From Eledone cirrhosa (taxonomy: Eukaryota): DNA of 64,000 nt. Positions 6,994 to 40,990 of this stretch are shown piece by piece; positions within the stretch are counted from its first letter, which is position 1, and every line of letters starts with the position of its first letter. The translations under genes were made by a program, and so were the position numbers. The DNA lies in NCBI GenBank assembly GCA_964016885.1, contig OZ024745.1, positions 62,124,001 through 62,188,000 on the forward strand. Reading direction: 5' to 3'. A model generated the notes under the pieces. That model had not been told where the DNA came from. It was given only the letters and a program-made list of their open reading frames with translations, and searched no databases.

Positions 6994-7185
6994 AACGAAG
7001 GAAATGTGGTAAGGAACCAGGTGGACCACAACGCACCAAAGTACTCAATACTTTGGGTAGTAGAGTGGGTAATAGGAACCAGTAAGACCCCGACGGCTGA
7101 GCTCAGGCCGTTTCGACGGCTAATTCTGGACTGAATTAGCCGTCGAAACGGCTTGAGCTCAGCCGTCGGGGTCTTACTGGTTCCT
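6994..7185. mobile_element. Mini-PLE family A fold-back copy
   Basis: About 140-nt inverted arm with tail plus about 52-nt direct arm; (TA)n on both sides. Confidence 0.85.
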
Positions 7186-7285
7186 ATATATATATATATA
7201 TATATATATATATATATATAAACAAATAATAAAAAGGAAAAAAAATTCAGTACAAACTGCAGGAGAGATTTTTTCAGTATATTTT

Positions 7286-7426
7286 TTAGTCCAGAATTAG
7301 CCGTCGAAACGGCTTGAGCTCAGCCGTCGAGGTCCTACTCGTTCCTATTACCCACTCTACTACCCTAAGTATTGAGTACTTTGGTGCGTTATGGTCCACC
7401 TGGTTCCTTACCACATTTCCTTCGTT
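7286..7426 (+). mobile_element. Mini-PLE family A single arm with tail
   Basis: Same sequence as the long arm, followed by (TA)n; preceded by an inverted copy of local flank. Confidence 0.85.
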
Positions 7427-7938
7427 AATATATATATATATATATATATATATATATATATATATATATATATATATATATATATATATATATATATATA
7501 TATATATATATATATATATATATATATATATATATATATATATAAAGTTTTACATATACATAAAGTTATAGATATATATGCTGCAACCGGTCACTTTTAA
7601 GCTCTATGTGTACATACCGTAATTACGGTATGTACACATTTCTTCTAAGTTTAATTTTACACCTAATTGTGTATGGTTGATGATATATTTAGTCAGTTTC
7701 CACATGCTGTCGAAATGTTGGATACATATTGGGGCCACCGTGAAGAGGCCACTTTCGGTTATTTGTCGAAGATTTCTTCATAAGAACCTTTCTTCTTATA
7801 GCTTGGTCTAATTGATTTTTTATATGGTTAATTATGCTAATTGGAAGAAGAAACTGTATATATTTTATCTAATAATTCTAAAGACATGATTTATGATATA
7901 TATATATATATATATATATATATATATATATATATATG

Positions 7939-8031
7939 TAATTGTTTCTGCTTTAGGCACAAGGCCAGCAATTACTCACTACATTACTGGTACTTTATTT
8001 TATCGACCCCGTAAGGATGAAAGGCAAAGTT
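7939..8031 (-). mobile_element. SINE 3' fragment
   Basis: Reverse complement of the SINE core and tail. Confidence 0.8.
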
Positions 8032-8640
8032 ATACATATAATAAGGTTTCGTTTTATAAGAAATAAATGAAGGTGGTAGTAATCTGGTGGAAAACATCAT
8101 CACACACACACACACACACACACACACACACACACACACACACATATATATATATATATATATATATATATATATATATACACATATATATGATGCTGTT
8201 TGCCACCATCACCAGATTGCTACCACCGTCATTTATTTCTTATAACACGAAACATTACTGTTTAAACTATTGCTAAATTTTGTTTTCTATCAAATTCATG
8301 CAATTTACAGACTTTTCTAAAACTCTTACCGAAGCTTTATCTGGAGATGACTAACTAGTCATCACAATTAAATATGGTTAGTGTTGAATAAATTTGAATA
8401 ATAGATTTAACCACTAGCCACTGGTACATACAATTCTATGTAAACCTAGTTATATTGTATATGAAAAGAAGACTTCTTCCCAAAAACCTACTGTCATTCC
8501 TGGAAACACCTATGGTGTATTTTAATACTGTAGTCTATATAAATCTAAATGAAATCCATATTTTTGCAGAAGCATGTAAACTTTTTGTCATTTCAATCTT
8601 TCAGTTTATTAAAATGTTATATTCATTTCAGAAATAATAC

Positions 8641-37976: not shown

Positions 37977-37988
37977 ACTATCTATCTA

Positions 37989-39137
37989 TCTTCCAACGGA
38001 GGGCTGGGAATGCCGTGGCTGATGATGCGCAAACATGCGCTGAGGCTGCGGCATCTCCAGGTATTCCTCACCGACCCCCAACCCCAACCGGTGTGGGCAC
38101 CGTTTGTGAGACAGGCTTTCCCACAGCTCGTCTCGCTAACGGAGCTGCAGTCCTGGGTGAAGAAAAGACCGAAAACGATGGGCGCCTGGCACATTGAATG
38201 CGCTCAGGCGCTCACTGTCCTCTGGCAAGCGGGCGCAGCAATCAGTGGAGACTCCACTTCGACATTCTATAGAGGGATTGTACGTTACAAGGGCGACGAC
38301 GTGCTCGGAGAGACTCTGGGCGTCGAAGACGATGAGCTCACCAGTATGTTTGGTAGGACTTTCCGCCCGGGACCTATGGACAACTTCCAGAGGTCCCTGG
38401 CCTGGCAGTGCTACCGAGGAGCTCTACCGGTTCGTGACAAGATCTACAGGCACGGACGCCCTGGCAGGGATCCTTCCAAGAGGACGTGTCCAAGATGTGC
38501 GCAGGACATTGAAATAGTTCTGCACGCAATTGTACACTGCCCGGGCGTAAGCGACCTGTGGAACTATGCAGAACAACTGCTGTCGCGTATGGGACAAATA
38601 CAGTTGACTGCCGAGTCCATAGTAAGGATCAAACCGCCAGACTCTTTCAAAAACGAAAGAGAGGCGGTTTTCCTCTTTACGGTGGCTATGGTGAAAGAAG
38701 TTATATGGTGGACGAGGTTGAGAGGACTGAGGACAGATGCCTTTCTCTCCGGACAACAATTGATTCCATTCTTTAAGTATCACTTTAGAAGGAGAATCAG
38801 GGTGGAGAGAGAGGCACTGCACCCCAGTAAATTTACTGAAAGGTGGGTGAATGAAGCGAAAATGGCCCGAGTGATTGGGCCTTCTCTGTTTATAAGCCTG
38901 TAGGTTGAGGAAGAGAGCAAAAGGAAGAAAGGAGCACTTGCACAACACGCTCCTTGAGTTGAGGGTTGTTCTATCGACGGGGTATTAAACAACCCATTTG
39001 TGGCGCCTCCCCCCTATTGGGGATTTCGATTGTTGAAATTGTTTGTTTTTATATTTTTTACACGACTGTATGTAAAATCCCCGGCATGTCTTTGTATTGT
39101 CCCCTTTCTTGTTGCGCCCTTGTGGCTAATAAAGAAA
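37989..39137 (+). mobile_element. 5'-truncated Tx1-type element, copy 3 (open 297-aa C-terminal frame)
   Basis: ORF 38010-38903 is homologous to the C-terminus of the 56-62 kb element; flanked by (CTAT)n. Confidence 0.9.
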
Positions 39138-39732
39138 TCTATCTATCTATCTATCTATTTATCTATCTATCAATCTCTCTCTCTCTCTCTCTCTCTCTCT
39201 CTCTCTCTCTCTCTCTCTCTCTCTCTCTCATATATATATATATATATATATATATATAATGTTTGGGTAGTGAAGATGTTTGCTTAGTGAAATCCCAAAT
39301 TACCTAGTGTATGACTCGCTGAGCAACGGCGCTAATAAATGCTGGTACCATTTATTTCTCAGCAATTTGCACCATGTAGGTGACACGTTTTGCAATAATT
39401 TCACACAATCAATATATCACACTTTTCACTAAGTAGATATATCATTTTGGTCTCCAACTTAGTATTCAATCCCTCGTTTTGGGTAGGGTTCAGAAATTGT
39501 TAAATCTCTCTTGGGGAGCCAAACCCAAGTCATATCAGTTTATAATTCAGATATCTATTGTTTAAATAGATAGTGCAATGTCTTAACAAAAACGGTTTGT
39601 CATTTCCCTGCAGAGACTTGTCAGTTAAACTCTTATTTACTCTTCGTCTTTACCTAGAGGCTCAATGGTAATATATTCTATCATTGGATTGACAGTTTCG
39701 GTAGAGGGTCGGATGCTATGCTTTGCAGCAAA

Positions 39733-40506
39733 GATGACCGCTACCGGCATAGTAGGACATTTTATTTATTGTTAAAAGGAGTTAACGTAAGTAGGGTTTG
39801 TCGACTCACTCTAATGAGGTGGTGTTAAGGTATGAGTATGAGTATCAATTATTAGTAAAGTCATAAAAGACTATACATAAATTTAACTACTATAAAGCTG
39901 CAAGTTCAGTGTGAGCTTGAAGGCCTAGAAAGGTGAAGACACTTTAGATGGAATCTGTATACTTATATCATCATTTGTCTAAGAAGTTGTCATCAATTGC
40001 GGCCATAGACAACAACAATCTTTCTATAGATGGACACGGCAAATACTTAACCACCATAACACTTGAGGCTCCCCCAACACCCCACCCTGTCTCGACGTAC
40101 TGCGGTGGACTTACCACTAAACAACTTCATCCATCCCCTGTTCTCCCTCCAGGGAGCTGCACTACATATATTCAGCTGGGCATACCCCGCTATATTCTTC
40201 CACACTGCCAGACTGATCTTTGGGTAATTTTAGAGAACCGCCGCTTATACCCAAGCAACGTCTTAGACAACTGATCATATAAGTATACAGATTCCATCTA
40301 AAGTCTCTTCACCTTTCTAGGCCTTCAAACTCACACTGACCTTGCAACTTTATACTAGTTAAATTTGTGTATAGTATTTTATGACGTTACTAATAATTTA
40401 TACTCATACCTTCACACTGTCTCATTAAATTGAGTAGACAAACCCTACTTACGTTAACTTCTTGTAACAATAAATACAATTTCTTACTATGCCGGTAGCG
40501 GTCATC
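39733..40506. repeat. Fold-back element with about 255-bp diverged arms (39733-39990 / 40256-40506), adjacent to a SINE 5' fragment (39685-39730)
   Basis: gatgaccgctaccggcatagta... and ...tactatgccggtagcggtcatc are reverse complements. Confidence 0.8.
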
Positions 40507-40797
40507 AGTTTGACAAGTAACTTTACACTGCACCGGTAATTACCTCCCTTAGATCACAGTCACCTTTCCTCCATTTTTCTATACGTAAAAATGCATTCTG
40601 ATGTTAAGGTATGTTTCTACCCGTACAGGGTATTTTATTAAAAACTTTGCCTTTATATTTGCCTCATAAGATCTCCATTGGGCGAAATATATGTAAGAGC
40701 TTTATAAAAAAAATATGTTGTAACGGCTTGTAAATCAATCATTAATCGTTTTGCTTATATATATATATATATATAATATATATATATATATATATAT

Positions 40798-40990
40798 AAC
40801 GAAGGAAATGTGGTAAGGAACCAGGTGGACCATAACGCACCAAAGTACTCAATACTTAGGGTAGTAGAGTGGGTAATAGGAACGAGTAGGACCCCGACGG
40901 CTGAGCTCAAGCCGTTTCGACGGCTAATTCTAGTCCAGAATTTGCCGTCGAAACGGCTTGAGTTCAGCCGTCGGGGTCCTACTCGTTCCT
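40798..40990. mobile_element. Mini-PLE family A fold-back copy
   Basis: Same architecture; in (TA)n. Confidence 0.88.

Follow-up and report, generated by a model that had tools for sequence, protein, structure and literature searches.

Short palindromic copies of a putatively Hydra-like Penelope-like element of Eledone cirrhosa share an upstream limit inside a hammerhead motif that may mark an RNA 5' end

We analyzed a 64,000-nucleotide stretch of the Eledone cirrhosa genome (GenBank assembly GCA_964016885.1, contig OZ024745.1, positions 62,124,001 to 62,188,000 of the forward strand; hereafter the window, with positions counted from its first letter). Four palindromic copies of about 200 bp, called minis here, belong to one repeat family (family A) of a Penelope-like element (PLE) that is putatively Hydra-like. 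Each mini consists of an antisense long arm and a sense short arm joined head to head, and all eight arm ends at the junctions lie in loop II of a predicted hammerhead ribozyme. The upstream limit of these ends, A1687, is also the +1 position of an initiator-like hexamer. We tentatively favor, at somewhat less than an even chance, the explanation that the minis are pairs of complementary DNAs (cDNAs) that ran off the RNA at a fixed 5' terminus, this predicted start, and were then joined.

The arm ends are given as positions in the family-A copy at 1645, which served as a ruler. They were placed by local alignment, and three of them (the right arm of the mini at 6994 and both arms of that at 40798) were reset after visual inspection of the junction strings, because the aligner continued through the palindrome. 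Mini 1 (6994-7184, 191 bp) has an antisense long arm reaching 1687 and a sense short arm starting at 1697, with a 4-nt overlap. In mini 2 (27587-27789, 203 bp), a perfect palindrome, both arms end at 1687 and overlap by 2 nt. Mini 3 (29421-29624, 204 bp) has a long arm to 1692 and a short arm from 1687, separated by 5 extra nucleotides that are a copy of the antisense arm, with overlaps of 3 nt and 4 nt. The arm ends of mini 4 (40798-40989, 192 bp) are at 1696 and 1690-91, with an overlap of 0-1 nt. No strand was assigned to these palindromes. A sequence-only reading of the same DNA had described four copies of about 190-205 bp with different junctions, all within about 10 nt. The junction strings were indeed as it gave them and all different, the lengths are 191-204 bp, and the arm ends span 1687-1697; its list was incomplete, as the window holds 15 family-A pieces.

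The 3' ends of the arms are two fixed sites 93 nt apart, common to all four minis, and (TA)n is found on either side of each mini. The 0-4 overlapping bases at the junctions look like generic microhomology joining. In two of the four minis, the microhomology comes from a 4-nt inverted repeat of loop II (1687-1690 and 1697-1700); this repeat requires C at 1690, where T accounts for 77% of the depth in public run X1 (see below; majority-letter and loose-end results are among the rows listed). The equal terminal inverted repeats of MITEs (miniature inverted-repeat transposable elements) were not found in the minis, in which the repeat is internal and the termini are unlike because one arm is longer by 93 nt. 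Nor do they have the layout of non-LTR (long terminal repeat) retrozymes, head-to-tail units each with a whole hammerhead: the mini arms are inverted and lack 1643-1686. Family-A sequence gave no matches in a metagenome scan, and three matches of only ~20 nt in viral sequences, the same sequence three times. Sub-threshold microRNA matches were seen at 149-255, 7081-7178, and 40881-40987.

The hammerhead motif lies on the plus strand of the 1645 copy at 1643-1736, with predicted cleavage between 1731 and 1732. The 3-8 core pair, GAAA, a UH cleavage site, and three stems are all present, as expected of type I hammerheads. Stem I has 5 bp, the core pair is U3/A8 (a covariant described for Schistosoma PLEs in the available part of PMC4209133; here and below, cited papers are drawn on for the passages available), and stem III has 6 bp with a palindromic loop. 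Stem II has 8 bp with one bulge, seven of the eight pairs being formed in the 1645 copy, and loop II comprises 37 nt (1664-1700). The sequence-only reading had located the junctions correctly in the stem-II loop, while the motif limits it gave, 1645-1721, did not hold. A hammerhead descriptor run on the whole window gave two matches, 1643-1736 and a weaker one at 33636-33705. An Rfam search of the hammerhead stretch gave no hammerhead match and a single match to a microRNA family (E 8.2), and over the window there was no hammerhead among the 150 listed of 169 matches. Free folding of the 1645 copy was unremarkable (z -1.57); the three stems appear in the centroid and not in the minimum-energy fold. 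Loop II contains an apical hairpin (1675-1695, plus strand) with a 4-nt loop at 1683-1686, in which all eight pairs form with the majority letters (1676, 1690, and 1694 changed) and six of eight in the window copy. A native 12-bp stem II, with the insert of mini 3 as its 5' strand, was refuted, as the upstream majority letters match the 1645 copy. A 13-nt exact match (E 0.15) links 345-357, upstream of the reverse transcriptase (RT) homology, with 1351-1363, upstream of the hammerhead.

Among the 15 family-A pieces, nine end at 1687-1697 (the eight mini arms and a copy at 7285), three at 1732-1738, just past the predicted cleavage site, and two at 1702 and ~1728; only the 1645 copy extends upstream. 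Of the nine loop-II ends, five fall at 1687-1688 and none goes past 1687 in the upstream direction; the stretch 1675-1686, with the 5' strand and loop of the native apical hairpin, is retained in none of them. The chance of four junctions falling within 11 nt is 0.02 for a 60-nt range and 0.0015 for 150 nt; that of five of nine ends falling at one site within 11 nt is 0.006, or 0.04 when the two arms of mini 2 are counted once (4/8). The 7285 copy (7281-7426, plus strand) is a single long arm with its 5' end at 1687-1688, no second arm, and no trace of an antisense arm at that end. It is joined, with at most 2 nt of overlap with flanking DNA, to an inverted copy of the flank (7230-7282, minus strand, 53 bp, an exact match to 6830-6882). 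The region 6830-7426 holds two minis of different haplotype in one TA tract, with the 53-bp flank inversion on the later cDNA. The ends at 1702 and ~1728 are the two arms of an older, fifth mini (5203-5359, no strand assigned), which belongs to a diverged subfamily (81-86% identity).

The three ends past the cleavage site all belong to a compound insertion (108-888, no strand assigned), which comprises an inverted tail to 1734, a sense tail from 1738, an RT fragment, filler, and a 17-nt piece. The last (872-888) starts exactly at 1732, the first base past the predicted cleavage site, so the three ends lie 0-6 nt past it. The chance of this is ~0.00025, a rough figure for a single event picked after the fact. 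This insertion, counted as four pieces with the RT fragment attached through a 16-nt A/T filler, may be a trace that in vivo cleavage left in the genome.

Within each mini, the arms have diagnostic letters in common. The letters at 1738 and 1743 in one arm recur in the other arm in every mini (T/G, T/G, C/T, and C/C across the four), and mini 2 has an additional private change, at 1728, in both arms; the left arm of mini 3 has a 1-nt gap at 1737-38. Over the 49 + 89 nt compared (0-7 differences), the arms differ by a mean of 1.75 letters within minis (4 pairs) versus 3.83 between minis (24 pairs). In addition, over 89 nt the tail of mini 4 matches the one beside the RT fragment without a difference; from the other minis it differs by 2-6 letters. 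Because each mini's two arms share one haplotype, the junctions appear to have been made separately, in agreement with the independent events suggested by the sequence-only reading. Judged from these letters, the arms were either rebuilt from one template lineage per event or homogenized later, and the mirrored pattern does not agree with the copying of a single ancestral palindrome in one piece.

Core-promoter motifs were scored around A1687. The initiator-like hexamer (1685-1690, plus strand) matches the Drosophila consensus (from PMC4581360; -2 to +4 scored) at six of six positions, with P = 0.0015 per site, and is the sole match on either strand of 1021-1748 (728 bp); there was no match on the sense strand of 205-867. 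A TATA-like octamer (1662-1669, plus strand, 7/8) lies at -25, which is 5-6 nt nearer to the start than the usual -30/-31, and the motif ten element (MTE) matches in register at 9 of 12 positions. Promoters of this kind have precedents, since Penelope has an internal promoter with an initiator (Inr) and a downstream promoter element (DPE) (PMC2377424) and the pseudo-LTR (pLTR) of a rotifer element has a TATA and an Inr-like motif (PMC3846280).

Public reads extended the pattern beyond the window. Four of the 12 listed runs (X1, X4, X5, and X10) were compared with the stretch 1330-1748. The summed contig depth in X1 was 3.58 million at 1725, 1.78 million at 1700, 0.39 million at 1690, and 0.15 million at 1686; from 1683 to 1648, it was 0.10-0.18 million, or 3-5% of the value at 1725, an uncertain ratio because summed contig depth is no copy number, is inflated by short branched contigs, and comes from a run that is possibly the window's own sample. 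For these reasons we treat the step as at least tenfold. The corresponding depths were ~420 versus 16,950 in X4, which is not on record as an RNA run and was not read as expression, and ~49 versus 588 in X5, from another organism. In X1, 35 contigs have a loose end before 1687; among the ends listed, the commonest sequence, a plurality with agreement 0.52, is the fold-back form, with the junction of mini 1. In a second, diverged subfamily, the listed loose ends before 1701 agree over 10-12 nt across three runs and then scatter, which seems to point to about the same boundary. Plus-direction reads of X10, a restriction-site-associated DNA (RAD) run, fell from 361 at 1690 to 77 at 1686. It should be noted that only this drop was used: the overall depth step of X10 was rejected as evidence because the run was cut at AATT sites, one of which is at 1698. 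Its table of positions where many molecules end was also dropped, since five of the six rows shown fall on AATT sites and probably reflect the restriction cut; the sixth (1687, 702 molecules) would be AATT as well if the preceding base were A, as in three window junctions. A listing of read joints on 1330-1748 gave two skips and no strand changes. Taken with the window, the arm-end pattern is real and probably genome-wide.

Under the run-off explanation, the RNA would start at A1687, the predicted transcription start of the element inside loop II. Such an RNA would be without the 5' half of the ribozyme and would not cleave itself in cis, which would be why the arms pass the cleavage site. Two cDNAs would be primed on opposite strands of a TA-repeat target, by analogy with the anole PLE, whose protein cuts the two strands of AT-rich DNA and extends both in vitro (PMC11167929). 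They would begin at the short and the long internal sites and run 60 and 150 nt to 1687, after which their ends would lose up to 10 nt and be joined by 1-4 nt of microhomology. In the anole PLE, two internal RT start sites define the tail, and ribozyme cleavage is not required (PMC11167929). RNA initiated further upstream would have the whole ribozyme; when cleaved, it would yield 1732 ends such as those in 108-888, and when uncleaved, long copies such as that at 1645.

Several observations weigh against this explanation. The hexamer was noticed after the fact, and A1687 coincides with other features: it directly follows the apical loop, and a splice-acceptor-like run lies at the same place (a splice-acceptor reading of 1692 and 1697 was discarded, as only two of the nine ends, those at 1692 and 1697, adjoin such sites). 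A TATA box in register (-31/-30) was not found, with 1-2 of 8 positions matching, nor was a DPE at +28 to +33 (3/6), and the ribozyme core dictates the MTE letters. In the 26 published Hydra hammerhead rows, loop II never exceeds 10 nt and never contains the hexamer, and in D. virilis the start is upstream of an intron ending at helix I, thus outside the ribozyme. The junctions of minis 1 and 3 are equally compatible with a palindromic template, and the fifth mini falls outside the cluster. Finally, the size of the depth step is uncertain from the inflated contig depth, the window alone giving 11 to 1, and a second, roughly tenfold depth drop at 1610-1623, ~25 nt upstream of stem I, where several pieces start at 1619, is possibly another candidate 5' end.

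Four other explanations were weighed. The minis could be self-propagating, with RT copying the sense arms of read-through transcripts from both start sites and the junction being rebuilt near the inherited apex; the clustering would then be by descent, and promoter and ribozyme would both be irrelevant. Every mini does contain both start sites, the mirrored haplotypes are compatible with such a cycle, and the mini 1 form, the plurality among the listed X1 ends, recurs as the same join inside mini 3. On the other hand, the arm of the 7285 copy stops at 1687-1688 without antisense continuation, mini 4 shares its tail with the RT fragment rather than with the other minis, the boundary is seemingly common to a diverged subfamily, and the initiator at the apex is left unexplained; we consider this account rather unlikely. 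Another way to obtain an end at 1687 would be RNA cleavage, by a host nuclease or by hydrolysis, at the C-A step closing the apical loop, with everything else as in the run-off explanation. Pyrimidine-A steps in RNA loops are labile, A1687 is the first paired base past the 4-nt loop in the majority structure, and such a cut would account for both the hard limit and the absent 5' strand. Yet the initiator, MTE, and TATA-like matches would then be coincidence and we know of no nuclease for an apical-loop C-A site, which makes loop cleavage improbable in our view.

The sequence-only reading had itself proposed that the ribozyme hairpin may stall RT or may supply the complementarity by which two same-sense cDNAs pair, a structural and non-catalytic contribution of the hammerhead; in our terms, the hairpin would be that of stem II, and the stalled RT would be copying the full pLTR RNA. 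Every one of the eight arm ends is in loop II, on or beside the 3' strand of the fully paired (8/8) hairpin, and the 4-nt loop repeat is used in two of the four minis; uncleaved RNA is the dominant template in vitro for the anole PLE (PMC11167929). The details of the ends nevertheless disagree with it. Most are at the apex, where RT would already have passed stems I, III, and II; an RT stall is expected at the foot of a stem, and the ends are instead at the top of the apical stem, with 1675-1686 retained in none of the nine. Moreover, the majority 1690-T form is without the 4-nt repeat. A purely non-catalytic role for the hammerhead is also unlikely because three cDNA ends lie 0-6 nt past its cleavage site. 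We therefore give the hairpin proposal little credence, and the upstream limit at 1687 is most likely better read as a template end than as a stall. As a last alternative, the minis could descend from one palindrome that was copied whole and later suffered deletions at its unstable center, or could be an assembly artifact at hairpins. Palindrome centers are deletion-prone, and a deletion in the perfect palindrome of mini 2 could yield mini 4. Unit copying would not, however, give diagnostic letters mirrored in both arms without conversion, the fold-back form is found in the 35 X1 contigs (among the ends listed), and the non-palindromic 7285 arm has the same end, so we regard this as very unlikely.

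The element itself was placed through the RT fragment. The N-terminal part of a PLE RT (376-855, plus strand) shares 54% identity with P0001 over residues 96-255 of the latter, which was the top one of 12 matches among 535 candidates. It contains SDKTGNLY, that is, the DKT motif in which DKG is modified, and all 14 family-A ends listed, except two internal ones, run into TA repeats; the Hydra clade has the DKT motif and (TA)n targets and includes an Octopus family (Craig et al. 2021, PMC8557442). The clade is further defined by an RWK motif in the absence of a conserved GxKF/Y, and by a C-terminal GIY-YIG domain that lacks CCHH and is preceded by a CxCX5C linker. The RWK motif was not found in any frame of 205-375; the homology begins at residue 96 of P0001, a protein with RWR, and this RT copy may be 5'-truncated or degenerate. 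The RT homologs are ~700 aa, with a C-terminal Pfam GIY-YIG domain in one of four scanned, and the window has only the N-terminal fragment, without the endonuclease part. The family-A repeat is joined to the RT fragment on both sides in 108-888, and there is no full-length copy in the window, so that the assignment of repeat and RT to one element would rest on this joint. We call the fragment Hydra-like because RWK was not found in this copy and the endonuclease is outside the window. Of note, the tail (205-293) has short motifs in common with the 3' end of Hydra-2_Amil, in a different order, possibly conserved RT recognition signals.

As in Hydra-clade PLEs, (TA)n targets and DKT occur together with a type I hammerhead near the 3' end, although the motif here has a U3/A8 core, a 37-nt loop II, and a 7-nt loop III, whereas all 26 of the published Hydra rows have C3 cores and loops of 3-10 nt (PMC8557442). 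A 13-nt stretch of this hammerhead is absent from the available Hydra supplement (PMC8557442). Inverted 5'-truncated copies of Penelope and Pen2a_Av (PMC3846280, PMC8557442) are likewise head to head with a one-sided tail and a short overlap; in contrast to them, the minis have arms of only 50-150 nt, a tail of 93 rather than 30-40, and a common upstream limit. Poseidon of Anolis (PAc) resembles the minis in its two tail-defining 3' ends, its AT-rich target, and its arms from uncleaved RNA. The available part of that study reports no reads ending at the cleavage site, unlike the three genomic ends 0-6 nt past it seen here, and inverted products are not treated there (PMC11167929). Non-LTR retrozymes (10.64898/2026.07.22.740005) are also short non-coding derivatives of PLE pLTRs, arranged head to tail with a whole hammerhead per unit, whereas the minis are head to head with the 3' half only. 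Cercyon PLEs of Schistosoma share U3-A8, a helix II of 7-8 bp, a short helix I, and a palindromic loop III; their motifs are minimal, without a stable helix III, while the 6 bp found here would permit a predicted monomer fold (PMC4209133). Cercyon motifs on opposite strands 100-700 bp apart have also been noted (PMC4209133). PLEs are already known to form inverted copies that are 5'-truncated and have a tail on one side, and promoters that are internal and have initiator-like motifs have also been reported. Palindromic PLE minis of 200 bp with a constant point of inversion, or a start inside the hammerhead, were not found in open-licence titles and abstract starts; Repbase or Dfam may hold them.

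The window also contains other elements. A second RT-bearing element at 41169-46573 has an inverted arrangement with its junction inside an open reading frame (ORF; 43466-44573 versus 44770-45839, 90%). It has a Pfam RVT_1 match and is probably another PLE family; the hammerhead descriptor found nothing there. Two ORF pieces at 47591-48503 resemble parts of a third PLE type, its thumb and its GIY-YIG region, with no Pfam match. Inverted-repeat elements of other kinds, not related to family A and in some cases containing a simple repeat that separates the arms, are located at 1819-2083, 4744-4947, 8042-8257, 23024-23150, 39733-40506, and 49797-50082. A dispersed repeat of ~185 bp resembling short interspersed elements (5712-5896, 11489-11811, 17555-17668, 23426-23869, 31412-31988, and 46230-46413) also occurs as tandem and inverted pairs. 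RT/endonuclease remnants of the long interspersed element type are present at 8642-11370, 36324-39134, 59322-62000, 12146-15301, and 53507-56251.

The origin of PLE inverted ends and the function of the hammerhead are both stated to be open in the available text of PMC8557442. Two fixed junction places in a very abundant family, one with the initiator and one at the cleavage site, make both questions testable. Such minis risk being filed as MITEs or microRNA hairpins. It is possible, though less than probable in our estimation, that the element carries a promoter inside its own hammerhead, so that the 200-bp mini is its default product, because the promoter-made RNA would lack half the ribozyme and place the sites where RT starts at 60 and 150 nt from the cap, and long copies would come only from read-through RNA with a whole, cleaving ribozyme. 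If true, this would be a reason why short palindromic copies outnumber longer ones tenfold or more, and the minis would be a fossil 5' RACE (rapid amplification of cDNA ends) in which the start site and in vivo cleavage are both recorded.

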